Notes under the pieces: generated by a model
The model's input: only the letters and a program-made list of their open reading frames with translations
What the model was told of the DNA's origin: nothing
Database searches by the model: none
Shown: positions 10,628 to 61,924 of the stretch, piece by piece
Position numbering within the stretch: the stretch's first letter is position 1
Layout: each line of letters begins with the position of its first letter
NCBI GenBank assembly: GCA_964016885.1
Contig: OZ024764.1
Coordinates: 25,110,001-25,174,000, forward strand
Origin: Eledone cirrhosa
Taxonomy: Eukaryota
DNA length: 64,000 nucleotides
Direction of reading: 5' to 3'
Made by a program: the position numbers and the translations under genes

Positions 10628-10630
10628 CGA

Positions 10631-11327: not shown

Positions 11328-11332
11328 GCTTA

Positions 11333-12120
11333 TCTATATATATAAAACTGTGGTTGTCTGTCTGTCTATCGATTTTTGGCACACATCTCCTCTTAGAATC
11401 TCTCACGGAATTGCACCGAAATTGCTATACTTGTACATTGAGCCCTAGCGAAGACATCGGAAAAAAAAATATTTCAAATTGACCCACTCTATGTGACGAA
11501 ATCGAATATAATGTATCGATTTTTGAGCGTAAGTGATCAGTTATTTCCCTTTGTTCTGTTTACATTGAGCGTCTTACGTAAAAAATTACGCTGGCTTTAA
11601 CAGTTGTCGAGCCAGCAAAATACTGACCTGCAAAATTCATCAGTTCGAACACTAAGCTTCCGTTTTGCTTCATTTCCATTTAAAAGCATTTTAAAACAAT
11701 ATTTTTACTTGAAAACAAGTCTATTTAAAGACTACGTAAAACAAGCAAATATTTCGTCGTTAGGCGTGCAGACAGACAGTCGTGCAGAGAGGTGATATAG
11801 GCGTGCAGACAGACATAACTGATAATTTGGTTACGCTAATGTTTTTCTCTGCGTTGCAGTGTTTACATTTTCGATCTTTGTTAATAAATAACCAGTGCAG
11901 TTTCTATCCCCAGAATCCTCTTTTGTTATAACATTCGGGTTATCGTTATGTTTTCTTAACTTCATAAGGCATATTGTTGGTTGAGGGAATATTAATCAAA
12001 AACACCACATGCAAGTCTGCACAGTAGACACTACAGTTTTTAAGCCAAGAAAGAAACTTAACATTGTAACTTTAACACAGCTACTGAGCGACCCCGAGCA
12101 ACGCCGGGCTTTACTGCTAG
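11333..12120 (+). mobile_element. Non-autonomous Helitron
   Basis: A|TC...CTAG|T ends, subterminal hairpin CCCGaGC-aac-GCCGGG shortly before CTAG, no TSD. Confidence 0.85.
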
Positions 12121-12397: not shown

Positions 12398-12910
12398 GAA
12401 AGTATAGAAATTATTGTGAGCGTGAAGCCAACAGCATTTCATAATATATGTGACTATAACGTCAAAATGGAAAATAATTAACGTAAGATGTGGGAAAAAT
12501 AATTCAAACTCAATTTTAAAAAATCAAGACAGATTTATCCATAGAATTTTGTGAAATCCAGGGAAAAATCTATAGAGCCTTAACTCTGAATAAAATAAAG
12601 TTTAAATACTCATCCTTCAATTTGGAAAAACTTCAAATGCTCTATATAGTCTTAAAAAGACTATTTCACGAAACTTTCAGTGGGGATGGTCACGGTTGGA
12701 ACCGTTCATCAGTAGAGCTCAACATGGTAACCCTAAACCACTGCCAGAATATGCTAAAAAGGGAATTTCAAAGCAGCCTAGTTCAACTCATGCGTAAATA
12801 TGAAAATAAACGCACATGGAGAGACATGGCTGGTGACGTCAGAATGAGACGAATGTCTGTTTACAGGAAACAGCAGTCAAAAAACATTCCGAAAAAAAAG
12901 TCTACAAATG

Positions 12911-15872: not shown

Positions 15873-18325
15873 TCATATATGCCAGTGAACAAGGTTACAT
15901 TTGGAGCCTAAAAATATCTCTCCAAAACCAGGGGTCGACTTGTCTGCTAAATATAGTATGTTAACCTTTACCACTGAGGGGTAACAGTGAAACTGCCGGC
16001 CAAACACTTGTTGTACACCACTTACCATAACTCTAGCAACCCACCACATTTATTTCTACTGAATCTCATATTTGTTAAGTCTAACGTAGAGATTATAGTA
16101 ATATCAATGTCTTACTGTAGCTTATAGTGTAGGTTACCATAGGGTAGGTTACTGTAGGGTAGGATATCGTAGGGTAGGTTACCATAGGGTAGGTTACCAT
16201 AGGGTAGGTTACTGGAGGCTAGGATACCGTAGGGTAGGTTACCATAGGGTAGGTTACTGGAGGCTGGGATACCGTAGGGTAGGTTAGCATAGGGTAGGTT
16301 AGCATAGGGTAGGTTACTGTAGGGTATGTTACTGTAGGGTAGGTTACTGTAGGGTAGGGTACCGTAGGGTAGGTTACTGTAGGGTAGGTTACTGTAGGGT
16401 AGGTTACCATAGGGTAGGTTACTGTAGGGTAGGATACCGTAGGGTAGGTTACCATAGGGTAGGTTACCATAGGGTAGGTTACTGTAGGGTATGTTACTGT
16501 AGGGTAGGTTACTGTAGGGTAGGGTACCGTAGGGTAGGTTACTGTAGGGTAGGTTACTGTAGGGTAGGTTACCATAGGGTAGGTTACTGTAGGGTAGGAT
16601 ACCGTAGGGTAGGTTACCATAGGGTAGGTTACCATAGGGTAGGTTACTGTAGGGTATGTTACTGTAGGGTAGGTTACTGTAGGGTAGGGTACCATAGGGT
16701 AGGTTACTGGAGGGTAGGTTACCGTAGGGTAGGTTACTGTAGGGTAGGTTACTGTAGGGTAGGTTACCATAGGGTAGGTTACTGTAGGGTAGGATACCGG
16801 AGGGTAGGTTACCATAGGGTAGGTTAGCATAGGGTAGGTTACTGTAGGGTATGTTACTGTAGGGTAGGTTACTGTAGGGTAGGTTACCATAGGGTAGGTT
16901 ACTGTAAGGTAGGGTACCATAGGGTAGGATACCGAAGGGTAGGTTAATGTAGGGTAGGGTAGCGTAGGGTAGGTTACCATAGGGTAGGTTACCATAGGGT
17001 AGGTTACTGTAGGGTAGGTTACTGTAGGGTAGGTTACTGTAGGGTAGGTTACCATAGGGTAGGTTACTGGAGGCTAGGATACCGTAGGGTAGGTTACTGT
17101 AGGGTATGTTACCATAGGGTAGGTTACTATAGAGGAGGTTACCATACGGTAGGTTACCTTAGGGTAGGTTACCATAACGTTGGTAACTATAGGGTAGGTT
17201 ACCATAGTGTAGGTTAATGTAGGGTAGGTTACCATAGGATAGGGTACCATAGGGTAGGTTACAATAGGGTATGGTACCATAGGGTAGGTTACCATAGGGT
17301 AGGTTACCATAATTTAGGTTACCTTAGGTTAGGTTACAATAGGGTAGGTTATCATAGGTTAGTATACTATAGGATAGGTTACCATAAGGTAGGTTAGCAT
17401 AGGCTTGGTTACCATAGGGGAGGTTACTATTGGTTGTTACCATAGGGTAGGTTACCATAGGGGAGTTTACTATAAGTTGTTACCATAGGTTAGGTTACCT
17501 AGGGTATGTTACTATATGGTAGGTTACTGTAGGGTAGATTACCATAAGGTAGGTTACTATAGGGTAAGTTACCATAGGGTTGATTACCTTAAGGTAGGTT
17601 ACCATAGGGTAGGTTACCATAGGGTAGGTTACCTTAGGGTAGGTTACTATAGAGTAGAGTACCATAGGGTAGGTTACTCTAGGGTAGATTACCATAGGGT
17701 AGGTTACCATAGGGTAGGTTACCATAAGGGAGATTATTATAGGGTAGGCTACCATAAGCTAGGTTACCATCGGGTTGTTTACTATAAGATAGGTTACCAT
17801 AGGGTAGGTTACCATAGTGTAGGTTACTATAGGGTAGGTTAACATAAGTTAGGTTACTATAGGGTAGGTTATATATGACAGTTTACCATAGGGTAGGTTA
17901 CCATAGGGTAGGTTACCATAAGGTGGGTTATCATAGGCAGGTTACCATATGTTATGTTACCATAAGTAGGTTACCATAGGCTAGTTTACTAGAGGTAGGT
18001 TACCAGATGTTGTCATAGGGTAGGTTACCAAACCATAGGTTACCACAGGGTAGGTTACCATAGGTTAGGTTACCATACCATATGTTTGTTAAGGTTAGGC
18101 TAGGCTGGTTTACTCGGTGAGTTAGAACTCACTTGTGACTGTAGTGTTTTAGAAGAAGGGTCTTAACATTTAGTGCACCACTAAATTTTTTAACTGTTTC
18201 CCCTGCAACTGCCTTAATTTTGGGGGTTGTCTTATCAATGCAATAGGGTCCTAAACCTAAGTTACACCTCAGAATTTTAGGGGCCGACCTATGTACCAGA
18301 TAGACTTGTACACCGGCATATATGG
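15873..18325. mobile_element. Non-autonomous Tc1/mariner-type (Tc2/pogo-like) TIR element carrying the 15-bp minisatellite
   Basis: Left end TA|TCATATATGCCAGTGAACAAG vs reverse-complemented right end TA|CCATATATGCCGGTGTACAAG. Subterminal GGGGTCGACTT-like motifs at both ends. Confidence 0.75.
16128..18080 (+). repeat. 15-bp G-rich minisatellite
   Basis: Same unit as 3088-6740. Confidence 0.97.
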
Positions 18326-30118: not shown

Positions 30119-33100
30119 CAGTGAAACTGCCGGCCAAACACTTGTTGTACACCACTTACCATAACTCTAGCAACCCACCACATTTATTTCTACTAAATCT
30201 CATATTTGTTAAGACTAACGTAGAGATTATAGTAATATCAATGTCTTACTGTAGCTTATAGTGTAGGTTACCATAGGGTAGGTTACTGGAGGGTAGGATA
30301 CCGTAGGGTAGGTTACTGTAGGGTAGGGTACCATAGGGTAGGTTACCATAGGGTAGGTTACCATAGGGTAGGTTACTGTAGGCTAGGTTACTGTAGGGTA
30401 GGATACTGTAGGGTAGGTTACCATAGGGTAGATTACTGGAGGCTAGGATACCGTAGGGTAGGTTACCATATGGTAGGTTACCATATGGTAGGTTACCATA
30501 GGGTAGGTTACTGTAGGGTAGGTTACTGTAGGGTAGGTTACTGTAGGCTAGGATACTGTAAGGTAGGTTACTGTAGGGTAGGATACCGTAAGGTAGGTTA
30601 CTGTAGGGTAGGTTACTGTAGGGTAGGATACCGTAAGGTAGGTTACCATAGGGTAGGTTACTGTAGGGTAGGGTACCGTAAGGTAGGTTACCATAGGGTA
30701 GGTTACTAGAGGGTAGGTTACTGTAGGGTAGGTTACTGTAAGGTAGGTTACTGTAGGGTAGGTTACTCTAGGGTAGGTTACTGTAGGGTAGGATACCGTA
30801 AGGTAGGTTACCATAGGGTAGGTTACTGTAGGGTAGGATACCGTAAGGTAGGTTACCATAGGGTAGGTTACTGGAGGGTAGGTTACTGTAGGGTAGGTTA
30901 CTGTAAGGTAGGTTACTGTAGGGTAGGATACCGTAAGGTAGGTTCTGTAGGGTAGGTTACTGTAGGGTAGGATACCGTAAGGTAGGTTACCATAGGGTAG
31001 GTTACTGTAGGGTAGGATACCGTAAGGTAGGTTACCATAGGGTAGGTTACTGTAGGGTAGGATACCGTAAGGTAGGTTACCATAGGGTAGGTTAGTGTAG
31101 TGTAGGTTACTGTAGTGTAGGATACCGTAAGGTAGGTTACCATAGGGTAGGTTAGTGTAGTGTAGGTTACTGTAGGGCAGAATACCGTAAGGTAGGTTAC
31201 TGTAGGCTAGGATACTGTAAGGTAGGTTACTGTAGGGTAGGATACCGTAAGGTAGGTTACTGTAGGGTAGGTTACTGTAGGGTAGGTTACTGTAGGGTAG
31301 GATACCGTAAGGTAGGTTTACATAGGGTAGGTTACTGTAGGGTAGGGTACCGTAAGGTAGGTTACCATAGGGTAGGTTACTGGAGGGTAGGTTACTGTAG
31401 GGTAGGTTACTGTAAGGTAGGTTACTGTAGGGTAGGATACCGTAAGGTAGGTTACTGTAGGGTAGGTTACTGTAGGGTAGGATACCGTAAGGTAGGTTAC
31501 CATAGGGTAGTTTACTGTAGGTTAGGATACTGTAAGGTAGGTTACCATAGGGTAGGTTACTGTAGGGTAGGATACCATAAGGTAGGTTACCATAGGGTAG
31601 GTTAGTGTAGTGTAGGTTACTGTAGTGTAGGATACCGTAAGGTAGGTTACCATAGGGTAGGTTAGTGTAGTGTAGGTTACTGTAGGGCAGGATACCTTAA
31701 GGTAGGTTACCATAGGGTAGGTTAGTGTAGTGTAGGTTACTGTAGGGTAGGATACCGTAAGGTAGGTTACCATAGGGTAGGTTACCATAGGGTAGGTTAG
31801 TGTAGGGTAGGCTACTGTAGGGTAGGTTACTGTAGGGTAGGTTACCATAAGGCAGGTTACCATAGAGTAAGGTACCTAAGTTTAGGTTACCATAGGGTAG
31901 GTTATTTAGGCTAGGTTACTGTAGGTTAGGTTACTGTATGGTAGGTTGCCATAGGGTAGGTTATCATAGTGTAGGTTACCATAGGGTAGGTTTCTGGAGG
32001 GTAGGTTATTATAGGGTAGGTTACCATAGTGTAGGTTACCATAGCGTAGGTTACCATAGGGTAGATTACCATAGGGTAGGTTACTGGAGGGTAGGTTATT
32101 ATAGGGTAGGTTAACATAGGGTAGGTTAACATACTGTAGCTTACCATAGGGTAGGTTATTATAGGGTAGGTTATTATAGGGTAGGTTACCATAGGGTAGC
32201 TTACTGGAGGGTAGGTTATCATAGGGAGGGTTACCATTGGGTAGGTTACTGTAGGGTAGGGTAGGTTACTATAGGGTAGGTTACTATAGGGTACGTTATT
32301 ATAGGGAAGGTTACCAATGGGTAGGTTACTGTAGGGTAGGTTACCATAGGGTAGGTTACTGTAGTGTACCGTAGTGTAGGTTACCATAGGGTAGGTTACC
32401 ATAGGGTACGTTATTATAGGGTAGGTTTCCATAACGTAGGTTTCCATAGGGTACGTTAGCATAGGGTAGGTTACCTTATGGTAGGTTACCATAGGGTAGG
32501 TTACCATATGGTAGGTTACCTTAGGGTAGGTTACCATAGGGTAAGTTACTATAGGTTAGGTTACCATAGGGTAGGTTACCGTAGTGTAGGTTAATGTAGG
32601 GTAGGTTACTATAGGATAGAGTACCATAGGGTAGGTTACAATAGGGTATGGTACCATAGGGTAGGTTACCATAGGGTAGGTTACCATAGGTTAGGTTACC
32701 TTACGTTAGGTTACAATAGGTTAGGTTATCATAGGTTAGTATACTATAGGATAATGTTACCATAGGGCATGTTAGCATAGGCTTGGTTACCATAGGGGAG
32801 GTTACTATAGGTTGTTACCATAGGGTAGGTTACCATAGGGTAGGTAACTATATGGTAGGTTACTGTAGGGTAGATTACCATAAGGTAGGTTACTATAGGG
32901 TAGGTTACCATAGGGTTGATTACCTTAAGGTAGGTTACCATAGGGTAGGTTACCTTAGGGTAGGTTACTATAGGGTAGAGTACCATAGGGTAGGTTACTC
33001 TAGGGTAGATTACCATAGGGTAGGTTACCATAGGGTAGGTTACCATAGGGTAGGTTACCATAAGGGAGGTTATTATAGGGTAGGCTACCATAAGCTAGGT

Positions 33101-34153
33101 TACAATCGGGTTGGTTACTACAAGATAGGTTACCATAGGGTAGGTTAGCATAGTGTAGGTTACTATAGGGTAGGTTACCATAAGTTAGGTTACTATAGGG
33201 TAGGTTATATATGACAGTTTACCATAGTGTAGGTTACCATAGGGTAGGTTACCATAAGGTGGGTTATCATAGGCAGGTTACCATATGTTAGGTTACCATA
33301 AGTAGGTTACCATAGGCTAGTTTACCATAGGTAGGTTACTATAGGGTAGATTACTGTAGGGTAGATTACCATAAGGTAGGTTACTATAGGGTAGGTTACC
33401 ATAGGGTTGATTACCTTAAGGTAGGTTACCATAGGGTAGGTTACCTTAGGTTAGGTTACTATAGGGTAGAGTACCATAGGGTAGGTTACTCTAGGGTAGA
33501 TTACCATAGGGTAGGTTACCATAGGGTAGGTTACCATAGGGTAGGTTCCCATAAGGGAGGTTATTATAGTGTAGGCTACCATAAGCTAGGTTACAATCGG
33601 GTTGGTTACTATAAGATAGGTTACCATAGGGTAGGTTACCATAGTGTAGGTTACTATAGGGTAGGTTACCATAAGTTAGGTTACTATAGGGTAGGTTATA
33701 TATGACAGTTTACTATAGGGTAGGTTACCATAGGGTAGGTTACCATAAGGTGGGTTATCATAGGCAGGTTACCATATGTTAGGTTACCATAAGTAGGTTA
33801 CCATAGGCTAGTTTACCATAGGTAGGTTACCAGAGGTTGTCATAGGGTAGCTTACCATACCATAGGTTACCACAGTGTAGGTTAGCATAGGGTAGGTTAC
33901 CATACCATATGTTTGTTAAGGTTAGGCTAGGCTGGTTTACTCGGTGAGTTAGAACTCACTTGTGACTGTAGTGTTTTAGAAGAAGGGTCTTAACATTTAG
34001 TGCACCACTAAATTTTTTAGCTGATTCCCCTGCAACTGCCTTATTTTGGGGGGGTCGTCTTATCAATGCAATAGGGTCCTAAACCTAAGTTACACCTCAG
34101 AATTTTAGGGGCCGACCTATGTACCAGATAGACTTGTACACCGGCATATATGG
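30119..34153. mobile_element. Copy of the minisatellite-bearing TIR element (array 30261-33910)
   Basis: Paralog of 2946-6980. Confidence 0.8.
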
Positions 34154-36245: not shown

Positions 36246-38439
36246 TTTATATATATATGTGTGTGTGTGTGTATATATATATATACACATATATATATAT
36301 ATATATAATGAAAAATAAATGTTACGAGCGAAAGAGAGGAATATCCATCGTCAGTTGTCTGCTAGGAATCATAGGTGTTTCTTCGTGTTAGGGGTAAGAT
36401 ACCTCAGCCTAGGGTGAACTATAACTAAAATAAGTTATTGGGATAAAAAAAAGGGGGGAAAGAGAGAAAAACATGTAAACAGACACGAAGGGTGAAGCAA
36501 CGTAAAGAGAGGAAAAATAGGAAATATATCAAGTCAACAACTCATTTCGAACGTAAGAATGGTGGTGAGTTTGACGACAGAGAAAGCGACACGTCTTCAC
36601 TGTAGCAGTGTTAGCGAGAGAAGAGGCTGCTTACAGTGGTGGACAAGGGAGGAAGTGAACTAGTGGAGAGAGGGAGTGAGTGAAAGTAAGAGGAAGCGAA
36701 AAAGAGATAGTTATAGTGGCAGGGTAGCCGAGATAAGGTGACTAGCAGAGGGGGTGAGCGAAAGTAAGAGGGAGAAGGAGAGAGAAGGGGGAGAGAGATG
36801 ATAGGAAGAAGGGGAGAGAAAAGTGACGGGTCACAGCGAAGAAGGAAGCTTATATGAATAAAATGGTGAGCTGTGTGGTTGCAAATAAGTATAATGAAAT
36901 AAAAATCTATCTATATAACATAGACATCTAAGGGCCTGGAGATTAGGTCACAAATTTGATCCCTCTTACAATCTGGAGATATGGTCAATATGGGCCTTAA
37001 AACCTTGAGTCCCTTTTCTTCTGTGTATGAACAGAAATAAATAATTGTTTCTACTTTTGGCACAAGGCCAGCAATTATTCAGTGCATTATTAGTACTTTA
37101 TTTTATCGACCCCCTAAGGATGAAAGGCAAAGTTAACCTCGGCGGGATTTGAACTCAAACCATAAAGGGGCGTAACTCTTTGCTGCAAAGCATGGCGTCA
37201 GACCCTCTACCGATACTGCCAACCCTGAAATAATGTAATATATATATATATGTATGTGTGTATGTATCTATTTATATATTTAACTATATTTTTTGTAATC
37301 ACAGAGCTAGACAGAGTCCACTTCCACAACCCAGTAACGTGTAAGTTTTAGTTTTATACACTATCTAACCATTATTCTCTCTGTTCATTCCCGTCTCTCT
37401 CTATCTCTCTCTCTATATATTTATATATATATACATAAGTATGTATATATATATAAGTATGTATACGTACATACATATATGTATCCATGTAGGGGCTCCC
37501 AAAGGAGCACTGAGTGCAATGTCAACTCTGGATGTCGGTGAGCATGTCCAGCTAACCTCAGTCTCCTCTGTGTCACCTTTGAGCTGACCTTTGGACACAC
37601 TAGAAGAGGAAGACCAAGGTTAACGTATGTTGATGCCTTAAGGACAGACACTGGTCTGTTGGAGTCGCAGGAGATGGCAGCGATAATGAGGGACAGAGAC
37701 GCTGGAGAGAACTCGTCCATGGATCTCGCCTTAGAGATATATGTATACAGACGTACAGTAGTATGTATATCTATATACATACATGCACACACATATATAT
37801 ATGAACGTATGGATTCACCGAACATTTATTATAATGCTCGGTGTGTTTGTAAACAAACATCCCCAAGTATGCCTTACAGTGTCTCACTGTGTCATTTCCC
37901 ACTCTTAGTACGTGTGTATACATATATGTATGTACGTATACATACTTATATTTAAGTAATAGCCGTACTAAGAGTGAGAAATGAAAATTCGTTTCATTTT
38001 TCCGTTTATCCTTTTCGGTACCCCGGCCGATTAACTCACTCGATATGAAAATTAGGCTGCTCAGATGTTAATATGCATAAGCAGAGTATATACTTTCAGA
38101 CGTTCAACCATCTGGCAGGAAGGTATACGTTGCTGACGATATCTAATAAGCTTGAAACTAGTACATCATTCCTTTGTCAGTGTTGAACAAATGAGCAACG
38201 ATGGTTGGTAAACACTGTACGGCTTAATTCGGGATGTTTGTTTACAAATACACCGAGCATTATAATAAATGTTCGGTAAATCCATTCGTACATATATATA
38301 TATGTGTGCATGTATGTATATATATATACATACTACTGTACGTCTGTATACATATATGTATGTACGTATACATACTTATATTTAAGTAACAGCCGTACTA
38401 AGAGTGAGAAATGAAATTTCGTTTCATTTTTTCTGCTTA

Positions 38440-39669: not shown

Positions 39670-40267
39670 GAAAGTATAGAAATTATTGTGAGCGTGAAGC
39701 CAACAGCATTTCATAATATAAGTGACTATAACGTCAGAATGGAAAATAATTAACGTAAGATGTGGGAAAAATAATTCAAACTAAATAAAAAAAAAATCAA
39801 GACAGATTTATCCATAGAATTTTGTGAAATCCAGGGAAAAATCAATAGAGCCTTAACTCTGAATAAAATAAAGTTTAAATACTCATCCTTCAATTTGGAA
39901 AAACTTCAAACGCTCTATATAGTCTTAAAAAGACTATTTCACGAAACTTTCAGTGGGGATGGTGACGGTTGGAACCGTTCATCAGTAGAGCTCAACATGG
40001 TAACCCTAAACCACTGCCAGAATATGCTAAAAAGTTGACATTTGGAGCCTAAAAATATCTCTTCAAAACCAGGGGTCGGCTTGTCTGCTAAATATAGTAT
40101 GTTAACCTTTACCACTGAGGGGTAACAGTGAAACTGCCGGCCAAACACTTGTTGTACACCACTTACCATAACTCTAGCAACCCACCACATTTATTTCTAC
40201 TGAATCTCATATTTGTTAAGACTAACGGAGAGATTATAGTAATATCAATGTCTTACTGTAGCTTATA

Positions 40268-41943
40268 GTGTAGGTTACCATAGGGTAGGTTACTGTAGGG
40301 TAGGATACCGTAGGGTAGGTTACTGTAGGGTAGGGTACCGTAAGGTAGGTTACCATAGGGTAGGTTACTGGAGGCTAGGATACCGTAGGGTAGGTTACTG
40401 TAGGGTAGGGTACCGTAAGGTAGGTTACCATAGGGTAGGTTACTGGAGGCTAGGATACCGTAGGGTAGGTTACTGTAGGGTAGGTTACCATAGGGTAGGT
40501 TACTGGAGGCTAGGATACCGTAGGGTAGGTTACCATAGGGTAGGTTACCATAGGGTAGGTTACCATAGGGTAGGTTACTGTAGGGTAGGTTACTGTAGGC
40601 TAGGATACCGTAGGGTAGGTTACTGTAGGGTAGGGTACCGTAAGGTAGGTTACCATAGGGTAGGTTACTGGAGGCTAGGATACCGTAGGGTAAGTTACCA
40701 TAGGGTAGGTTACCATAGGGTAGGTTACGGTAGGGTAGGTTACTGTAGGCTAGGATACCGTAGGGTAGGTTACTGTAGGGTAGGGTACCGTAAGGTAGGT
40801 TACCATAGGGTAGGTTACTGGAGTCTAGGATACCGTAGGGTAAGTTACCATAGGGTAGGTTACCATAGGGTAGGTTACTGTAGGGTAGGTTACTGTAGGG
40901 TAGGTTACCATAGGGTAGGTTACTGGAGGCTAGGATACCGTATGGTAGTTACTGTAGGGTAGGGTACCGTAAGGTAGGTTACCTTCGGGTAGGTTACTGG
41001 AGGCTAGGATACCGTATGGTAGTTACTGTAGGGTAGGGTACCGTAAGGTAGGTTACCTTAGGGTAGGTTACTGGAGGCTAGGATACCGTAGGGTAGGTTA
41101 CCATAGGGTAGGTTACCATAGGGTAGGTTACCATAGGGTAGGTTACTGTAGGGTAGGTTACTGTAGGGTAGGTTACCCTAGGGTAGGTTACTGGAGGCTA
41201 GGATACCGTATGGTAGTTACTGTAGGGTAGGGTACCGTAAGGTAGGTTACCATATGGTAGGTTACCATAGGGTAGGTTAGCATGGGGTAGGTTACTGTAG
41301 GGTAGGTTACTGTAGGGTAGGTTACCATAGGGTAGGTTACTGTAGGCTAGGTTACCATAGGGTAGGTTACCATAAGGTAGGTTAGCATAGGCTAGGTTAC
41401 TGTAGGGTAGGTTACTGTAGGGTATGTTACTGTAGGGTAGGTTACCATAGGGTAGGTTACTGTAGGCTAGGATAACGTATGGTAGGTTACTGTAGGGTAG
41501 GGTACCGTAAGGTAGGTTACCTTAGGATAGGTTACCATAGGGTAGGTTACTGTAGGGTAGGTTACTCTAGGGTAGGTTACTGTAGGGTAGGTTACCATAG
41601 GGTAGGTTACTGTAGGCTAGGATACCGTATGGTAGGTTACTGTAGGGCAGGGTACCGTAAGGTAGGTTACCATAGGGTAGGTTACCATAGGGTAGGTTAC
41701 TTTAAGGTAGGTTACTGTAGGCTAGGTTATTGTAGGCTAGGTTACTCTAGGGTTGTTTACCATAGGGTAGGTTATCATAGTGTAGGTTACCATAGGGTAG
41801 GTTTCTGGAGGGTAGGTTATTATAGGGTAGGTTATTATAGGGTAGGTTACCATAGGGTAGGTTACCATATGTAGGTTGCAATAGGGTAGGTTACTGGAGG
41901 GTAGGTTATCATAGGGTACGTTAACATAGGGTAGGTTAACATA
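40268..41943 (+). repeat. 15-bp G-rich minisatellite, truncated at a duplication breakpoint
   Basis: Same unit; abuts RTE 3' sequence at 41944. Confidence 0.95.
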
Positions 41944-42191: not shown

Positions 42192-43137
42192 AATCTATCT
42201 ATATAACATAGACACCTAAGTGCCTGAAGCTTAGGTTACAAATTTGATCCCTCTTACAATCTGGAGATATGCTCAATATTGGGCCTTGAAACCTTAAGTC
42301 CCCTTTGTTCTGTGTATGAACAGAAATAAATAATGTAATATATATATATGTATGTATGTGTATCAATTTATATATTTAACTATATTTTTCTCATCACAGG
42401 AAACAATTTTGTAGCTGGTTTGCTGAACACAAGTGTTTAGGGTAAGTGTTATCTTAACACACTGTCTAACCATTGTTTAATCTGCTCCTTCCACAACCTC
42501 TCCCTTTATACACACAGACACATATACATATGTATACACACACACACATATATATACACCTATATATATATATGTATACAGACACACACATATATATATA
42601 TATATACACATATATATATATACACATATATACATCTATATAAACACACATATATATATACACATATATATATATACATATATACAAGCGAGACACGGCC
42701 TGCCGACCAATCTCGCCTTAAGTGGGACAAAACCGTCCAACCCATGCTGGCGTGGAAGATGGACTTTAAATGATGATGATATATACACACTGACACATAT
42801 TATACATATATATATACACATATATATACGCATATATATATATATATAAAAACAAATAACGAAACGAAATTAAATTTCGTTTCGCTTCTAACTCACTTTT
42901 GTATGACTGACGCTTAAACAATTAAGTTAAAGTGTACATCTACATATGTATACGGAAGTATTAGTATGCATATAAATACACACATGTATACATATGTACA
43001 TGTACTCAGCTTTTCACTAGACACTTTACAGTGAGTGTCAGCTAGTCTGTATGTAACCACACAGGCGGACCGGGTTTTAGAGTCATACGAGTTTTCAAGG
43101 AAACACATTTCCTCTATTCTCCAGAGGGCCAGACAGG

Positions 43138-43182
43138 AATATTGGACTAGTTTCGATGTTATTACATCTCATCAGCAATATT
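43138..43182 (-). ncRNA. Type I hammerhead ribozyme (inverted arm)
   Basis: Reverse complement reads aatattg CTGATGA gatgt aata acatc GAAAC TA GTC caatatt. Confidence 0.9.
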
Positions 43183-43466
43183 TACCTATCTTCCGGCTTC
43201 ATATACATATGTAGATGTACACTTCCGTATACATATGTAGATGTACACTTTAACTTAATTGTTTAAGCGTCAGTCATACAAAAGTGAGTTAGAAGCGAAA
43301 CGAAATTTAATTTCGTTTCGTTATTTGTTTTTATCGTTTCCGCTGAACCGGTGCGTACAATGACTCACGTTCTATGCAAATTAGTCTACCCACTACTAAT
43401 TTTCATAGAAAAAGCATATAACGATATGTGCTTTTACAATTCTCCAGAGAAGCCGGAAGATGGGTA

Positions 43467-43511
43467 AATATTGCTGATGAGATGTAATAACATCGAAACT
43501 AGTCCAATATT
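43467..43511 (+). ncRNA. Type I hammerhead ribozyme; predicted cleavage after C43504
   Basis: aatattg CTGATGA gatgt aata acatc GAAAC TA GTC caatatt; stem I extends over 43440-43532. Confidence 0.93.
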
Positions 43512-43935
43512 CCTGTCTGGCCCTCTGGAGAATAGAGGAAATGTGTTTCCTTGAAAACTCGTATGACTCTAAAACCCGGTCCGCCTGTGTGGTTACATAC
43601 AGACTAGCTGACACTCACTGTAAAGTGTCTAGTGAAAAGCTGAGTACATGTACATATGTATACATGTGTGTATTTATATGCATACTAATACTTCCGTATA
43701 CATATGTAGATGTACACTTTAACTTAATTGTTTAAGCGTCAGTCATACAAAAGTGAGTTAGAAGCGAAACGAAATTTAATTTCGTTTCGTTATTTGCTTT
43801 TATCGTTTCCGCTGAACCCGTGCGTACAATGACTCACGTTCTATGCAAATTAGTCTACCCACTAATAATTTTCATAGAAAAAGCATATAACGATATGTGC
43901 TTTTACAATTCTCCAGAGAAGCCGGAAGATGGGTA

Positions 43936-43980
43936 AATATTGCTGATGAGATGTAATAACATCGAAACTAGTCCAATATT
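43936..43980 (+). ncRNA. Type I hammerhead ribozyme
   Basis: Identical motif, +469 bp. Confidence 0.93.
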
Positions 43981-44404
43981 CCTGTCTGGCCCTCTGGAGA
44001 ATAGAGGAAATGTGTTTCCTTGAAAACTCGTATGACTCTAAAACCCGGTCCGCCTGTGTGGTTACATACAGACTAGCTGACACTCACTGTAAAGTGTCTA
44101 GTGAAAAGCTGAGTACATGTACATATGTATACATGTGTGTATTTATATGCATACTAATACTTCCGTATACATATGTAGATGTACACTTTAACTTAATTGT
44201 TTAAGCGTCAGTCATACAAAAGTGAGTTAGAAGCGAAACGAAATTTAATTTCGTTTCGTTATTTGTTTTTATCGTTTCCGCTGAACCTGTGCGTACAATG
44301 ACTCACGTTCTATGCAAATTAGTCTACCCACTAATAATTTTCATAGAAAAAGCATATAACGATATGTGCTTTTACAATTCTCCAGAGAAGCTGGAAGATG
44401 GGTA

Positions 44405-44449
44405 AATATTGCTGATGAGATGTAATAACATCGAAACTAGTCCAATATT
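44405..44449 (+). ncRNA. Type I hammerhead ribozyme
   Basis: Identical motif, +938 bp. Confidence 0.93.
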
Positions 44450-44873
44450 CCTGTCTGGCCCTCTGGAGAATAGAGGAAATGTGTTTCCTTGAAAACTCGT
44501 ATGACTCTAAAACCCGGTCCGCCTGTGTGGTTACATACAGACTAGCTGACACTCACTGTAAAGTGTCTAGTGAAAAGCTGAGTACATGTACATATGTATA
44601 CATGTGTGTATTTATATGCATACTAATACTTCCGTATACATATGTAGATGTACACTTTAACTTAATTGTTTAAGCGTCAGTCATACAAAAGTGAGTTAGA
44701 AGCGAAACGAAATTTAATTTCGTTTCGTTATTTGTTTTTATCGTTTCCGCTGAACCGGTGCGTACAATGACTCACGTTCTATGCAAATTAGTCTACCCAC
44801 TACTAATTTTCATAGAAAAAGCATATAACGATATGTGCTTTTACAATTCTCCAGAGAAGCCGGAAGATGGGTA

Positions 44874-44918
44874 AATATTGCTGATGAGATGTAATAACAT
44901 CGAAACTAGTCCAATATT
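44874..44918 (+). ncRNA. Type I hammerhead ribozyme
   Basis: Identical motif, +1407 bp. Confidence 0.93.
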
Positions 44919-45143
44919 CCTGTCTGGCCCTCTGGAGAATAGAGGAAATGTGTTTCCTTGAAAACTCGTATGACTCTAAAACCCGGTCCGCCTGTGTGGT
45001 TACATACAGACTAGCTGACACTCACTGTAAAGTGTCTAGTGAAAAGCTGAGTACATGTACATATGTATACATGTGTGTATTTATATGCATACTAATACTT
45101 CCGTATACATATGTAGATGTACACTTTAACTTAATTGTTTATA

Positions 45144-45195
<52 letters not shown>

Positions 45196-45199
<4 letters not shown>

Positions 45200-45709
45200 A
45201 AAGAATAGAGGTGTAACACACAAGTTATTATATATTGATAAACGGAATAGAAAATGCTGACAAATTGTTCAGTTGAAAAATGGTTTAATTAGGAATAAAA
45301 GAGTATTAGTGATTGTAAACACACATGCTCTATGGTGCAATACAAAGAAATATATGTGCATATATATGTATGTATATATGTATATATATATATATATATG
45401 TAGTGGATATATGTATGTGTGTATGTGTATATAGTGAATATCATTTCACACCATTTATTGTTAAGATTTTTGATGTTCTATTAAGAGAACCGATTTTACT
45501 GAAAAAATCGAATAATGTACACCATTTTACCAGGGGGAAAAAAATACTGGTCCACCCACCCACACACACACACACACATATACACAAACACATACACATG
45601 CGTACATCAACATACTAAGAGACTTATACACACACACACACACACACACACGCACTTCTCCGTATAAGAGAAAAGCTGAAAAATATCTTTTGACCTTCGA
45701 ATGACTCTG

Positions 45710-45783
<74 letters not shown>

Positions 45784-45854
45784 ATCTTAATAGCCATTTG
45801 ACACACATCGCTGCTGGCCATTGTCGCAGTATCGAACACCTTACTACTACTACT

Positions 45855-45940
<86 letters not shown>

Positions 45941-46426
45941 ACACACACACACGTATTTGTTGTGAAAGAGTCATTTCTCAATCTTGGCGCAAAACCAATT
46001 TTTTATCCACATGACCTCTACCGACCAATCAAAATTGTTTTGACCAAGAATTTTTGCTGGAGCCACTTTTTTAACATAAAAACAGTCTTGGCGCAAAATC
46101 AACTTTTTACATTCACATGACCTCTACCGACCAATCAAAATTGTTTTGACCACAAGCATTTTTGCAACACAAAAATAGCGCTGGAGCCACTTTTTTAACA
46201 TAAAAACAGGTAGAATTCCCAAAACTAATCAGATCAGAGCAAACAGCACGGACACTCTATCTCAAAATTATTTTTGAAAAGCATTTAGAAATGCGCAACC
46301 GGTAAAAACTTAAAAACTTAAAACCACAACTGAATACTAACCCATACAATCACTAATACTCTTTTATTCCTAATTAAACCATTTTTCAACTGTGAACAAT
46401 TTGTCAGCATTTTCTATTCCGTTTAT

Positions 46427-46430
<4 letters not shown>
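45196..46430 (+). mobile_element. PLE 3' UTR/pLTR remnant with two outward-facing 3' ends
   Basis: 45196-45316 equals 54869-54989; 45317-46430 is the reverse complement of ~54907-55980. Confidence 0.85.
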
Positions 46431-46491
<61 letters not shown>

Positions 46492-52594: not shown

Positions 52595-53229
52595 AATCTA
52601 TCTATATAACATAGACACCTAAGTGCCTGAAGCTTAGGTTACAAATTTGATCCCTCTTACAATCTGGAGATATGCTCAATATTGGGCCTTGAAACCTTAA
52701 GTCCCCTTTGTTCTGTGTATGAACAGAAATAAATAATGTAATATATATATATGTATGTATGTGTATCAATTTATATATTTAACTATATTTTTCTCATCAC
52801 AGGAAACAATGTTGTAGCTGGTTTGCTGAACACAAGTGTTTAGGGTAAGTGTTATCTTAACACACTGTCTAACCATTGTTTAATCTGCTCCTTCCACAAC
52901 CTCTCCCTTTATACACACAGACACATATACATATGTATACACACACACACATATATATACACCTATATATATATATGTATACAGACACACACATATATAT
53001 ATATATACACATATATATATATACACATATATACATCTATATAAACACACATATATATATACACATATATATATATACATATATACAAGCGAGACACGGC
53101 TTGCCGACCAATCTCGCCTTAAGTGGGACAAAACCGTCCAACCCATGCTGGCGTGGAAGATGGACTTTAAATGATGATGATATATACACACTGACACATA
53201 TTATACATATATATATACACACATATATA

Positions 53230-53304
<75 letters not shown>

Positions 53305-53527
53305 CAATTAAGTTAAAAATGTACATCTACATATGCATACTGAAATACTAGTGTGTATATGAATACACACACGTATACATATGCAGATGTAACAAGTCTT
53401 TCACTGGTTGCTTTACCGTGAGCAACTCAGCTATTCTGTATGTAAACACACAGACAAACCGGTTTTTAGAGTCATACAGGTTTTCGAGGAAACATCTTCC
53501 CTCTATTCTCCAGAAAGCCAGACAAGG

Positions 53528-53572
53528 AATATTGAACTAGTTTCGTTGTTGTTACAACTCATCAGCAATATT
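53528..53572 (-). ncRNA. Type I hammerhead ribozyme (GUU cleavage triplet)
   Basis: Reverse complement reads aatattg CTGATGA gttgt aaca acaac GAAAC TA GTT caatatt. Confidence 0.92.
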
Positions 53573-53994
53573 TACCTATCTACCGGCCTTTCTGGAGAAT
53601 TGTAAAAGCACATATCGTTATATGCTTTTTCTATGAAAATTAGTAGTGGGCAGACTAATTTGCATAGAGTGTGAGTACGCACCGGTTCAGCGGAGACGAT
53701 AAAAACAAATAACGAAACGAAATTAAATTTCGTTTCGTTTGTAACTCACTTTTGTATGACTGACGCTTAAACAATTAAGTTAAAAATGTACATCTACATA
53801 TGCATACTGAAATACTAGTGTGTATATGAATACACACACGTATACATATGCAGATGTAACAAGTCTTTCACTGGTTGCTTTACCGTGAGCAACTCAGCTA
53901 TTCTGTATGTAAACACACAGACAAACCGGTTTTTAGAGTCATACAGGTTTTCGAGGAAACATCTTCCCTCTATTCTCCAGAAAGCCAGACAAGG

Positions 53995-54039
53995 AATATT
54001 GAACTAGTTTCGTTGTTGTTACAACTCATCAGCAATATT
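53995..54039 (-). ncRNA. Type I hammerhead ribozyme
   Basis: Identical motif, +467 bp. Confidence 0.92.
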
Positions 54040-54461
54040 TACCTATCTACCGGCCTTTCTGGAGAATTGTAAAAGCACATATCGTTATATGCTTTTTCTA
54101 TGAAAATTAGTAGTGGGCAGACTAATTTGCATAGAGTGTGAGTACGCACCGGTTCAGCGGAGACGATAAAAACAAATAACGAAACGAAATTAAATTTCGT
54201 TTCGTTTGTAACTCACTTTTGTATGACTGACGCTTAAACAATTAAGTTAAAAATGTACATCTACATATGCATACTGAAATACTAGTGTGTATATGAATAC
54301 ACACACGTATACATATGCAGATGTAACAAGTCTTTCACTGGTTGCTTTACTGTGAGCAACTCAGCTATTCTGTATGTAAACACACAGACAAACCGGTTTT
54401 TAGAGTCATACTGGTTTTCGAGGAAACATCTTCCCTCTATTCTTCAGAAAGCCAGACAAGG

Positions 54462-54506
54462 AATATTGAACTAGTTTCGTTGTTGTTACAACTCATCAGC
54501 AATATT
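54462..54506 (-). ncRNA. Type I hammerhead ribozyme
   Basis: Identical motif, +934 bp. Confidence 0.92.
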
Positions 54507-54834
54507 TACCTATCTACCGGCCTTTCTGGAGAATTGTAAAAGCACATATCGTTATATGCTTTTTCTATAGAGGGAAGATGTTTCCTCGAAAACCAGTATG
54601 ACTCTAAAAACCGGTTTGTCTGTGTGTTTACATACAGAATAGCTGAGTTGCTCACAGTAAAGCAACCAGTGAAAGACTTGTTACATCTGCATATGTATAC
54701 GTGTGTGTATTCATATACACACTAGTATTTCAGTATGCATATGTAGATGTACATTTTTAACTTAATTGTTTAAGCGTCAGTCATACAAAAGTGAGTTACA
54801 AACGAAACGAAATTTAATTTCGTTTCGTTATTTG

Positions 54835-54868
<34 letters not shown>

Positions 54869-54872
<4 letters not shown>

Positions 54873-55380
54873 AAAGAATAGAGGTGTAACACACAAGTTA
54901 TTATATATTGATAAACGGAATAGAAAATGCTGACAAATTGTTCAGTTGAAAAATGGTTTAATTAGGAATAAAAGAGTATTAGTGATTGTATGGGTTAGTA
55001 TTCAGTTGTGGTTTTAAGTTTTTACCGGTTGCGCATTTCTAAATGCTTTTCAAAAATAATTTTGAGATAGAGTGTCCGTGCTGTTTGCTCTGATCTGATT
55101 AGTTTTGGGAATTCTACCTGTTTTTATGTTAAAAAAGTGGCTCCAGCGCTATTTTTGTGTTGCAAAAATGCTTGTGGTCAAAACAATTTTGATTGGTCGG
55201 TAGAGGTCATGTGAATGTAAAAAGTTGATTTTGCGCCAAGACTGTTTTTATGTTAAAAAAGTGGCTCCAGCAAAAATTCTTGGTCAAAACAATTTTGATT
55301 GGTCGGTAGAGGTCATGTGGATAAAAAATTGGTTTTGCGCCAAGATTGAGAAATGACTCTTTCACAACAAATGTGTGTGT

Positions 55381-55444
<64 letters not shown>

Positions 55445-55515
55445 AGTAGTAGTAGTAAGGTGTTCGATACTGCGACAATGGCCAGCAGCGATGTGTGTCA
55501 AATGGCTATTAAGAT

Positions 55516-55563
<48 letters not shown>

Positions 55564-55885
55564 CAGAGTCATTCGAAGGTCAAAAGATATTTTTCAGCCT
55601 TTGTCTTATACGGAGAAGTGCGTGTGTGTGTGTGTGTATAAGTCTCTTTGTATGTTGATGTACGCGTGTGTATGTGTTTGTGTATATATGTGTGTGTATG
55701 TGTTTGTGTATATGTGTGTGTGTGTGTGTGGGTGGGTGGACCAGTATTTTTTTCCCCCTGGTAAAATGGTGTACATTATTCGATTTTTTCAGTAAAATCG
55801 GTTCTCTTAATAGAACATCAAAAATCTTAACAATAAATGGTGTGAAATGATATTCACTATATACACATACACACATACATATATC

Positions 55886-55924
<39 letters not shown>

Positions 55925-57135
55925 TACATATATATGCACATATATTTCTTTGTATTGCACCATAGAGCATGTGTGTTTACGTGTGTCATTGTGTTTATAT
56001 GTGGGTAGAGATGTGTGTTGATGTAGGTATGTATGTTGACGTGTGTATGTTGTGGGTTCGTCTTAGGGAGAAGTGTTTAGACGGGGTCCGTATTTGTTAA
56101 TGAAGTAAGATTCCTTGCTGATGCGCTGGGCGTGGGTGGCATTATCTTTAAATTTGTAGAGGGGAAAGATTCTGAAGTTGGGATGATTTTGGGCGGCACA
56201 GGTATCAATGTGTTCACTCAGTGGTATTTTCCTGTATTCCGTATTTTAATTTGGGATCTATGGACAGTCATGCGTTGGCGGAGGCTGTTTTTGGTCTGGC
56301 CTATGTATTGTTCTCGACAACCTGAACAAGTTAATACATATATTAGATTTTCCGATGCACATGTGAAGTTGTGTTTTACTATAAAACGTTGTCCATCTTT
56401 GAAATAGAATTCCGAACCCTCTATTAGGTTGATGCAAATGCCACAGTTGGGTCTATCGCATTTTTTTACTGTGGGTTTCGTTGTTGTGGTTGGCAGTACT
56501 TTGGCATGTGTTAAGATGTTTTTCATTGACTTGGATTGTCTTTTGCTCTTTATGATATCGTGTGTTCGTAGAATTTGGCTCATTCTATGGTCCTTTTTCA
56601 ATACAGGTGTCAAAGGCCTCATTGTTGAGGGGTTGTGTGTGGAGATGTATGGAAGAGCTTTTAGTTTTGGTTGATTTACTTTGGGGTGTCTAAGGTCCTG
56701 GGTACTGAGTTTTAGGGCACGTTGGATTCCATTGTCAATTAGTGATGCAGGGTAGTCCCTGCCTATGAGTGTGTCCTTTAGTTCTTGTAGCCGTAAAAAC
56801 AGTCTTGGCGCAAAATCAACTTTTTAAATTCACATGACCTCTACCGACCAATCAAAATTGTTTTGACCACAAGCATTTTTGCAACACAAAAATAACGCTG
56901 GAGCCACTTTTTTAACATAAAAACAGGTAGAATTCCCAAAACTAATCAGATCAGAGCAAACAGCACGGACACTCTATCTCAAAATTATTTTTGAAAAGCA
57001 TTTAGAAATGCGCAACCGGTAAAAACTTAAAAACTTAAAACCACAACTGAATACTAACCCATACAATCACTAATACTCTTTTATTCCTAATTAAACCATT
57101 TTTCAACTGTGAACAGCATTTTCTATTCCGTTTAT

Positions 57136-57138
<3 letters not shown>
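54869..57138 (-). mobile_element. 5'-truncated Neptune-like PLE (GIY-YIG plus 3' UTR) with inverted pLTR arm 56795-57138
   Basis: ORF 56218-56622 has CDRPNCGIC and LIYVLTC..YIGQT. The arm is the reverse complement of ~54907-55250. Confidence 0.88.
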
Positions 57139-57182
<44 letters not shown>

Positions 57183-57262: not shown

Positions 57263-57495
57263 TTCAAATCTGCCGAGGTTAACTTTGCCTTTCATCCTTA
57301 CGAGGTCGATAAAATAAAGTACCAGTGGTGTACTGGGGTAATCGCTGGCCTTGTGCCAAAAGTAGAAACTATATTTATATATATATATATATAAGTATTG
57401 AAATTTCCGTTGGAAACAGAAAAGGTCATAGAAGTGAAGAGTGCTCTATTTAAGTATCAGAGCAAAATTTAATGTATAAAAATCAATACAATATA

Positions 57496-57573
57496 ATTAC
57501 CTCATTACCAGAGGTTTCCCGAATGAGGCGAATACGAAATAAACGTCTTCATTCGTTCGTCAGACGAGGCAAT
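57496..57573 (-). ncRNA. Type I hammerhead ribozyme (inverted pLTR arm)
   Basis: Reverse complement reads attgcctcgt CTGACGA a cgaatga..tcattcg g GAAAC CTCTG GTA atgaggtaat. Confidence 0.82.
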
Positions 57574-57773
57574 ATAAAACATGGGTAAATACTTAGAAAA
57601 AATCATCTATTACTCAGACCCTTTTAGTGAAAGCTTTAAATTTCGCTAGAGGGTTCACTAATATCTCCGATATTGAGGAGAATGTCATCTTGCATTCTAG
57701 GAACACTCTACTTTTTAATGATAATGACACTTGGGTAAAAATATCTAACCCATAGAACCCATTTGATGTCTCA

Positions 57774-58922
57774 ATGGGCTCTTATGACAGTGCCGATGTT
57801 TGTGATCTGGTCGGCCTATTCCTCTTACATACACTTAAAGAAAAATTTCCTAACCATATTTTGGGACTTTATCGCGACGATGGTCTAATACTTTCCCATA
57901 CCACCATAGGCCATAACTTAGATAGATTAAGGAAAGACTTAATAAAAACCTTCGCTAGTTTTAATCTTAAAATTACTATTGACACTAACCTTTCCAACGT
58001 AGATTTCCTAGATATAAACCTAGATTTGCCTACTGCTTCTTATAAACCATACCATAAACCTAATGAAAACTTAAAATATATAAATAAAGGATCTTGCCAT
58101 CCACCTATAGTTTTTAAAAACCTTATCCCTAATATTAGCCGTAGGATCTCCACCCTCTCTTCCTCAGAAGCTATTTTTAATAAGGCACCCCCCTACTATA
58201 ATAAAGCCCTCCAAAATAGCGGTTTTAGCGAACCGATTAAATACATACCTAACTACACTAACTCTATTAAACATAAAAATAGGAAAAGAAAAATAATCTG
58301 GTTCACACCCCCCTACTCTCTAGCAGTTAAAACTAATGTAGGCAAAAAATTCCTTGAGCTCCTAGATAAACATTTCCCTAGAACACATAGATACTATAAG
58401 ATCTTTAACAGAAACTGTGTTAAAATTAGCTATTCCTGCGGTCCCCCTATTAAGTCCTATATCCTCAACAAAATATCACCTAGAGAAAATCAAACTTGCT
58501 CCTGTAGAATCAAAAGTGAATGCCCATTACAAGGTAAATGCAACACCAAAGCCATTGTATATGCGGCTAAAGTGACAACCATCAGCAACAACCATCCAGC
58601 CACCAGTGAACGATATGTGGGTATGACGCAAGACAGATTCAAAACGCGTTATTACTCACATGTCGCATCCTTTCGACATCCAGAAAAAAGATTTACAACA
58701 GCTCTGGCTAGCAGAATATGGGATTTGAAAGACCAAGGCATCCAATATAAATTAGATTGGTCAATTTTGAACCAATCTAAAAAATATGCTAGAGGAACAA
58801 GAAAATGCACGCTCTGCATAAATGAAAAATATTGGATATTGCAAAATCTAAAATCACCAAAGACCTGCCTGAACACAAAGACGGAAATTTTCACCACACA
58901 TGAAATCACACCTGCTTTCTAG
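57774..58922 (+). pseudogene. PLE RT C-terminal half plus GIY-YIG endonuclease
   Basis: MGSYDSADVCDLVG, GLYRDDG, VDFLDI, CSC..CPL..C, IVY..YVG and CTLC. Homology continues upstream past a stop to ~57605. Confidence 0.9.
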
Positions 58923-59356
58923 CTCATATAAACTTAACACACTTTCAGATACTTATCCTCCATAAACTCTTATTATTCTCTTTTTAATTACCCTTTCTGA
59001 CTTACTTTCTTTTTTATCCTTGTCAATAATTTCATTTATTTTAATTTTTATTTTTACTTCCCATCCACCCCCCCCCCTTTATTCTCCGATTCACTTTCCA
59101 TTTTTTACTTTCCCTTCTTTTACTTCCCTTTTTCCTCCACTAACTGATTACACTTGTCTTTTGTGTTTTTCATCCAGATATATTTTCCATTTTTATTTTT
59201 ATTTTTTATTTTTGCGCAGCCAATCTTACAATTTTATATTTGTACTTACTTATCCACAAGTTTTTTACACCCTGTATCAATATGGCTGAACGCCTTAATG
59301 TGTGTATACTTTTATATATGTACATGAGTGACTACGTATGTGCGCGCGCGTGCGTG

Positions 59357-59415
<59 letters not shown>

Positions 59416-60202
59416 ATATGTATGTGTGTGTGTATGTATATATTATGCGTATGTGTATGTGTCTTTATATCCGTGTTTTTTTTTGTTTTTTTTTGACATC
59501 TCGATTTTATGTTTTTGTTCCTTTTTTCTTCTCCCCCCCCCCTTTCCCCTTTTTTTACTTACTCAGTTTTATGCGTGTGCATGCATACAGGTCAATATGC
59601 GTGAGTGTAAGTATGTGTGTGTGTGTGTGTGTGTATGTACGTATCGAACGTATGGATGTGTAAGTGCGCGTGTGTATATAAGAATATATATTTTCGCTTT
59701 TCTTTTGTGAGACATGCGTGTCTGTGTATGCATGTACCCTTTTTTGTCTTCTTTTCTTTAATTTTTTCTTTCTAAAATTTTTTCTTTCTAAAATTTTTTC
59801 TTTCTAATCTAATTTATTGTTACATTTTTATAAATATATCGAGATTGATACTTTCCTTTAATTATTACACTCCCTTACCTCTTTTACTTCTGCATCTAAG
59901 TGTACGAGTGTGCAGGCGTTTTATGCGCGCGCCTTCATATTCATATATTTATGATGTAACTATTCTGTCTGTAGATTATAGATACATTTGCCCTAAATTT
60001 TAGAATTACGCACACTTTTTCACTATACGTATACATGTGTACATATACATATATGCACATCTGTGAGCGTATATACATACACATACACACACCTAACTAT
60101 ATTTCTTGATAGATTTTTATATATTTCAATTTCTAATTCATTTGTCTATATCTTTTTTTGATTTTCTTGATGATTTTTTCTAAGTATTTACCCATGTTTT
60201 AT

Positions 60203-60280
60203 ATTGTCTCGTCTGACGAACGAATGAAGACGTTTATTTCGTATTCGCCTCATTCGGGAAACCTCTGGTAATGAGGTAAT
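60203..60280 (+). ncRNA. Type I hammerhead ribozyme; predicted cleavage after A60270
   Basis: attgtctcgt CTGACGA a cgaatga..tcattcg g GAAAC CTCTG GTA atgaggtaat. Confidence 0.82.
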
Positions 60281-60302
60281 TATATTGTATTGATTTTTAT
60301 AC

Positions 60303-60344
<42 letters not shown>

Positions 60345-61391: not shown

Positions 61392-61924
61392 GGTATAGTT
61401 CTGTATTGTTACAGATATGCATAATATTATATACATGAACGATAATCATATGTGTGAGTGCATGAATATTAATCATTTATTTTGTATGTATATATATATA
61501 CACTATATGCTTAACACTATAACTAAATAATTACCGTACTCCCTCTCTCTTAAATCTCTCTATTTGTATGGTGAATTATTATTATTCATCTGTTGCCTTC
61601 GGTTGCCTCTCTTTTTTCACCTCCTCCTTCTTTCTCTCTCCCCTATCTCTCTCTGTCTTTCTTTACATCCATTTCTTCTGTCTCTCCGTCTTTTTTTCTA
61701 ACTGTGCTTAACACTATAACTAAATAATTATAAACACTTCACTACCAAGCCAGCTTCCTACCTTAATGGTCGCTTATATTTATGGTACGTCAAAATTATT
61801 TATAAAACTGTTTATATATTGTATTTTATCTGAAGAAGGCATGCCATATTTTTAATATGGTATCCCTGAAATATGTATAATGAAATAAATATGGTTTTAT
61901 AAATATAGTTTCCATTTGTTTAAT

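Follow-up and report, generated by a model that had tools for sequence, protein, structure and literature searches.

Non-LTR retrozyme families of Eledone cirrhosa keep a predicted RNA fold and insert with a layout resembling that of Penelope-like elements

Introduction

Metazoan non-LTR retrozymes, as the main text of PMC7229834 describes them for coral, mussel and axolotl, are dispersed tandem units of ~170–400 nt that each carry one type I hammerhead, have a GC content below 50% and no LTR, PBS or PPT, are predicted to adopt a highly self-paired fold, show duplications of more than 4 nt, and co-occur with Penelope-like elements (PLEs), which the same paper calls a strong candidate for copying animal retrozymes. 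A recent preprint (Li, Clavereau, Pollet 2026; bioRxiv 10.64898/2026.07.22.740005) comes to the view of the mobiliser that we also reach here, namely that retrozymes are non-autonomous PLE derivatives, on the evidence of vertebrate co-occurrence and pLTR similarity, and states in its main text that the mechanism of retrozyme mobilisation awaits elucidation. Selection on retrozyme structure has been argued from fold stability (PMC4918200, main text). In the main texts of these three works (PMC7229834, PMC4918200 and the preprint), and in the titles and abstracts of the literature that we searched, we found no comparative pairing test for retrozymes; nor did we find any mention of inverted arms or tails for retrozymes, although the model in Supplementary Figure S9 of PMC7229834 could bear on the latter.

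The available text of two studies of PLEs supplies the other point of comparison. PLE insertions are characterised by an inverted 5' copy and by a tail on one side, and Hydra PLEs target (TA)n (PMC8557442). In vitro, a purified PLE protein nicks the two strands of AT-rich DNA, extends them, and starts from two sites within the RNA, which delimit the tail; a dimer was predicted (PMC11167929).

Here, we describe retrozyme families in the octopus Eledone cirrhosa that are known from DNA alone, whereas RNA has been demonstrated for the elements of PMC7229834. Their units (465–469 nt in families A and B, ~430 nt in families C and D) exceed those of PMC7229834 and lie inside the 51–972 bp range of the preprint, and their stem III resembles that of the axolotl HHR_Amex1, a single pair with a palindromic tetraloop, in a hammerhead that cleaves in dimeric form (PMC7229834). 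They share with PLEs (PMC8557442, PMC11167929) an inverted, 5'-truncated arm, a tail at one end only, two internal (in the retrozyme, putative) RT starts, AT-rich or (TA)n targets and a hammerhead; unlike PLEs, they have no ORF, and their tail is 51–69 nt long, against 30–40 bp in those two sources and 78–79 nt in a local Hydra-type PLE. Literature searches on octopus retrozymes and on cephalopod hammerheads and Penelope, in which subscription papers were thinly represented, returned no description of these families. The element class itself is known; what is new here is the evidence on selection and on mobilisation, the latter in the form of an insertion footprint.

Results

We analysed a 64,000-nt window of the E. 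cirrhosa assembly (GCA_964016885.1, contig OZ024764.1, positions 25,110,001 to 25,174,000), and all coordinates below are positions in this window. AT-rich repeat DNA at 53303–54841 is flanked on both sides by (TA)n (left flank 53198–53302, right flank 54842–54868). An earlier note had drawn on 53303–54840. This stretch is not a plain tandem array, since 54569–54841 is an inverted arm. The main arm of this family-B insertion (53303–54568, minus strand) holds 2.7 units of 467 bp and its outer end, which is the RNA 3' end, lies at a site that we call Y, whereas the inverted 273-bp arm (54569–54841, plus strand; monomer positions 31–303) has its outer end at a second site, X. Type I hammerhead motifs occur in every tandem unit, three of them full in this array (53528–53572, 53995–54039 and 54462–54506, all minus strand, with predicted cuts after 53535, 54002 and 54469, respectively) and 4+1 in the family-A array. 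The hammerhead call is motif-based, Rfam at its gathering threshold giving 0 matches in the 64-kb window. The unit is 467–469 bp long with ~37% GC, contains neither an LTR nor, as judged by eye, a PBS or PPT, and has no RT or GIY-YIG ORF (no ORF of at least 120 aa lies inside the array), so that it is not an autonomous PLE. On these sequence features, we assign the repeat to the non-LTR retrozymes as a new member of the described class.

Two further families lie in the window. Family A is inserted at 42846–45141 (plus strand), with an inverted arm at 42846–43200 (X end) and 4.1 units of 469 bp (Y end), and family C at 10630–11335 (plus strand, ends approximate), with a second copy near 37900–38400; the 431-nt unit of family C is ~62–64% identical to those of A and B and has the helix layout in common with them. 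Two local duplicates carry, at the same (TA)n site, the A insertion in one and the B insertion in the other, in opposite orientations, and the duplicate flanks agree at 340/341, 132/133, 95/96 and 122/122 bases. No empty paralogous site for this pair was found, only 2 of 41 flank matches being near-identical (those of arrays A and B themselves), and 10 older paralogs of the flank that we inspected had no such retrozyme inside. Different families at one duplicated site may reflect a hot site, replacement during repair, or haplotypes assembled in tandem. Within a local duplication with a period of ~27 kb, long arrays of a 15-bp G-skewed unit adjoin the ends of RTE-like LINEs (3085–6731, 16124–18077, 30258–33904 and 40266–41938).

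First-look searches of the 3.0-Gb genome gave 717 candidates for family B, 526 for A, 3,583 for C, 810 for B3 and 3,866 for D, of which the best 37–40 were scored for each (B 40, A 37). From 200 loci, we obtained 151 independent places (A 17, B 27, B2 3, B3 14, C 33, C2 21 and D 36), which combine best-scoring matches with pattern-selected variants and are thus a non-random sample. Family representatives are 89–96% identical within the A/B group, 88–94% within the C/D group and 60–64% between the two, and the order of helices is identical in both groups. The dispersed families are young, and copies of family A are mostly identical genome-wide, among the best-scored matches. Pattern searches for new hammerhead variants returned mainly known families in mutated form; what they added were B2, B3 and D. 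An unrelated retrozyme-like family with units of 310–312 bp and a CGCG-loop hammerhead (L047 285–1420, L237 2004–3150) likewise ends in (TA)n and has an inverted arm in L237. In two more hammerhead repeats (L177, L203–L206 and L210; L068, L081, L085, L115 and L187), the loop of stem III is palindromic (UGCA and GCGC); these also end in (TA)n, with inverted arms in some.

The insertions carry a signature at X and Y that the earlier note had missed. RNA-sense 3' ends cluster at these two homologous places in all families, and 178 of 237 such ends abut TA-rich DNA. Y is part of a small hairpin that follows the long stem, and X lies 3' of Y by about 69–71 nt in A/B, 56 nt in C and 51 nt in D, an interval that we refer to as the ‘tail’. 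Among the 151 places, 80 insertions are head-to-head and two-armed, 58 are one-armed and 13 were incompletely covered; the 80 two-armed insertions comprise 56 with one X and one Y end, one XX, one YY and 22 with an off-site end. Long arrays covered whole followed the XY layout in 6/6 cases, the longest arm measuring 10.5 units. In one of the sampled loci (L241), the arms measure 4.7 and 4.9 units and 8/8 full units match the family representative exactly. A readable target-site duplication of mixed sequence, 7–12 nt long including an end overlap of up to 2 nt per side, was present in 13/80 two-armed insertions; three others had longer duplications, and the remainder had pure (TA)n or none. Inside the arrays of L244, L245 and L246, variants alternate with periods of 2 and 5 units, in L244 in both arms, which suggests either multimer RNA templates or later duplication.

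The predicted RNA of the unit is highly structured. The hammerhead consists of a 7-bp stem I, CUGAUGA, a 5-bp stem II, GAAA, a minimal stem III with palindromic CUAG, and GUU. Because stem III is one pair with a palindromic loop, for which cofolding predicts a two-molecule fold, cleavage would probably take place in a dimer. About 67% of bases are predicted to be paired, and circular folding of the units of the two arrays gave −148.9 kcal/mol (z −9.9) and −161.7 kcal/mol (z −12.5), with 60 shuffles each. The motif scan of the arrays found no minus-strand ribozyme. The segment comprising the Y hairpin, the tail hairpin and the X site (53699–53779, minus strand) is the most conserved between A and B, which differ there at 2/88 sites, against 51/463 overall.

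The earlier note had claimed that compensatory changes between families A and B indicate selection on whole-monomer RNA structure. Every change that it named is found in the sequence: stem II goes from GATGT/ACATC to GTTGT/ACAAC by one A-U to U-A swap, the stem-I extension from C-G to U-A, and the long stem shows changes that keep G-U pairing (A-U to G-U, U-A to U-G), while A and B have the core CUGAUGA..GAAA in common and differ in the triplet, which is GUC in A and GUU in B. The change in the distal hairpin (53874–53893, minus strand) from GACACT/AGTGTC to GTTGCT/AGCAAC is likewise present, except that its third swap depends on the alignment, a 1–2 nt indel lying beside it. Over 473 alignment columns, the A and B units of the window differ at 54 by substitution and at 10 by a gap. 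Double changes were not above chance on the structure of A (2 vs. 1.19 expected, P 0.34) or of the window's B (2 vs. 1.21, P 0.35), and exceeded expectation on a family-level B structure with a multi-family alignment (5 vs. 1.15, P 0.006). Broken pairs, on the other hand, numbered 7 vs. 19.7 expected, a value reached in 0/10,000 permutations that preserve substitution types, and on the modelled folds the avoidance of stem breakage is a clearer two-sequence signal than the double changes. We rejected the A/B compensatory count as proof of selection, as it is too weak and non-significant in most set-ups; the step from A/B pairs alone to selection is inadequate, and it holds once more families and controls are added.

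We therefore turn to a wider comparison, in which the structure was taken from one family and the changes from another, along the branches A–B3, B3–B and C–D. Over the whole unit, the three branches break 11 pairs, against an expectation of 34.7, and have 6 compensatory pairs vs. 1.26 (P 0.001), and without the ribozyme and the stem-I extension, 11 broken vs. 23.5 and 3 compensatory vs. 0.71 (P 0.028). Because the end-site segment is unusually conserved, the test was repeated with permutation in 40-nt blocks and with the variable domain alone. Stem-sparing persisted in both (outside the hammerhead, 11 broken vs. 29.3 under block permutation; in the variable domain, 10 vs. 17.3, P 0.005, and 8 vs. 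18.6 in the opposite direction), and the distal compensatory excess was marginal in these repeats (P 0.025–0.095). Deep comparisons of A/B with C/D gave 12–16 compensatory pairs vs. 6.0–7.6 expected, with the distal part significant in 2/5 (P 0.35, 0.077 and 0.068 in the others). Among the compensatory pairs that distinguish A/B from C/D are two separate ones in M1, a predicted long-range helix (5' strand 53937–53944, minus strand) whose partner (53754–53761) is ~180 nt away. As a cross-check only, given that its consensus structure derives from the same, related sequences, a 9-sequence alignment has changes on both sides of 20/89 consensus pairs, and outside the ribozyme and stem I of 10/72, where slid controls gave 0–2; 2 of the 10 helices never vary and are hence uninformative.

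Variants private to single copies, which are presumed to postdate insertion, served as a neutral control. Across 127 places in five families, 474/905 private variants break stems, with ~462 expected at random: single genomic copies drift neutrally. The earlier statement that the element is unlike a neutral satellite thus applies to the families, which spare stems, and fails for the single genomic copies. As these copies drift neutrally, selection most likely acts on the copying cycle and not through a host function.

The distal hairpin also records its changes one at a time, with stepwise intermediates in other copies. At this place, B3 and A2 have CA/UG, L136 has UA/UA, L019 and L026 have UG/UA, in which one pair is a G-U wobble, and UG/CA is the state of most B copies. 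We regard L136, L019 and L026 as true intermediates because they are intermediate at other diagnostic sites as well: at 26 such sites, L136 has 13 B and 12 B3 states, and L019 and L026 have 23 and 3. A stepwise change through a G-U intermediate argues against a single template switch. When folding was run with G-U pairs forbidden, the one-by-one mismatches in Watson-Crick helices, read on the hammerhead strand, were G-U in 15 cases and A-C in 2 (11:2 at distinct sites, P 0.02); at branch level, the ratio of WC-to-GU to WC-to-AC changes was 11:6, vs. 111:123 among private variants, which is not significant (P 0.21). Taken with the additional families, the private-variant control and the block permutation, these observed intermediates uphold the earlier suggestion that selection acts on pairing beyond the ribozyme, in a test built on predicted folds and about five independent branches.

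A 5'-truncated Hydra-type PLE lies at 57390–60307 (plus strand; ORF 57756–58922; hammerheads at 60213, plus strand, and 57563, minus strand), and has an inverted 5' arm, a 78–79 nt tail and the one-X-one-Y layout seen in the retrozyme. A strict rule of this kind is not stated for PLEs in the available text of PMC8557442 and PMC11167929. The family to which it belongs, abundant and young, gave 38,086 first-look candidates, of which the best 150 were scored and are 95–100% identical, and a 719-aa ORF is present in 4/4 loci checked. Read by eye in L233 against the definition in PMC8557442, it has the marks of the Hydra clade: RWK, DKT, a CxCX5C linker, CxxC and CxH motifs, no CCHH, an ORF below 3 kb, a hammerhead and a (TA)n target; Pfam gave no match for the ORF. 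Between the retrozyme and this one PLE family, we found no common sequence beyond TA-rich low complexity, and the PLE tail is predicted to fold unlike that of the retrozyme. We consider Hydra-type PLEs a candidate kind of retrozyme mobiliser. A second PLE fragment, at 54869–57140, has a weak GIY-YIG match (56218–56823, minus strand), inverted arms and a tail of ~40 nt, and part of it recurs inverted at 45196–46435. Hammerhead-like motifs also occur in probable PLE ends at 12663–12712 (minus strand), 39936–39985 (minus strand) and 61830–61883 (plus strand), and a family-B array (L012/L020) is inserted inside a PLE end of the 61830 type, with a duplication of 6–8 nt.

Discussion

We consider it likely that these repeats are non-LTR retrozymes whose fold is kept because only correctly folded RNAs are copied into new (TA)n sites, probably by a PLE-type RT. 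Under this mechanism, the arrays would be transcribed and the ribozyme, probably acting as a dimer, would cut the transcripts into monomers and multimers, which may be circularised. A PLE endonuclease would make staggered nicks in the two strands of AT-rich DNA, and each DNA 3' end would prime cDNA at an internal site of the RNA, Y for one end and X for the other, such that the two priming events would give head-to-head arms of possibly several units each. Selection would operate among RNA variants during this copying cycle, and the inserted copies would then drift.

Paired changes might instead arise at the DNA level, by template switching or conversion in quasi-palindromes and without any selection on RNA. 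This process can yield multibase compensatory changes (PMC8794818), and here it would find an element rich in inverted repeats and, in the distal hairpin, changes that are adjacent; yet we judge it very improbable, as it does not account for the fact that private variants show no stem-sparing, that the adjacent swaps appear singly, via G-U, in intermediate copies, or that the double changes of M1 are isolated in arms ~180 nt apart, and the 15:2 bias towards G-U on the hammerhead strand is unexpected of a strand-neutral process. It is hardly more probable, in our view, that structure is selected while a LINE, for instance an RTE-like one, does the mobilising by twin priming. RTE-like RT fragments do end in (TA)n directly beside arrays A, B and C, and twin priming produces inverted 5' arms in L1 (PMC2837659). 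The retrozyme, however, has neither poly(A) nor a simple-repeat 3' tail, its layout fits a PLE tail, and both of its putative priming points are internal and fixed across all families. In L1 twin priming, the internal site is variable.

Two further readings concern where selection on the fold would be exercised. The fold could be selected mainly in viroid-like RNA-RNA replication, or for RNA stability, with the genomic copies being by-products captured by PLEs; the strong self-pairing of the units (z −9.9 and −12.5) would suit such a life, and RNA-RNA replication is one option raised for the heterogeneity of the mussel retrozyme (PMC7229834). Given, however, that the motif scan of the arrays found no minus-strand ribozyme, that conservation peaks around the sites at which insertions end, and that the copies of family A are largely identical genome-wide rather than resembling a quasispecies, we place this reading on a par with the LINE alternative, as improbable. 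That the RNA is kept for a host function, with selection on the genomic copies, recalls the abundance of related retrozyme RNAs in other animals (PMC7229834), but genomic copies gain stem-breaking changes at the random rate and families turn over, and we give this reading almost no credence.

Returning to folded RNAs copied by a PLE-type RT, we tentatively propose a narrower form of that mechanism, for which we would put the chances somewhat below even: the fold may be a structural decoy that docks a PLE dimer, whose subunits would prime at Y and at X on the two nicked strands. If this is true, the one-X-one-Y rule, kept across families that are only 60% identical, would be an in vivo footprint of the PLE dimer, and the RNA of 430–470 nt would be a natural minimal template with which to study PLE integration and to show directly how animal retrozymes move.

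More broadly, the pair-by-pair evolution of an RNA fold, of which records are rare, can be followed in these families, where the intermediates are preserved and a neutral control is built in. They also bear a PLE insertion footprint in which the putative priming sites can be named, and their genome encodes enzymes of a candidate class in intact form; the question of how they are mobilised therefore reduces to one in vitro assay.
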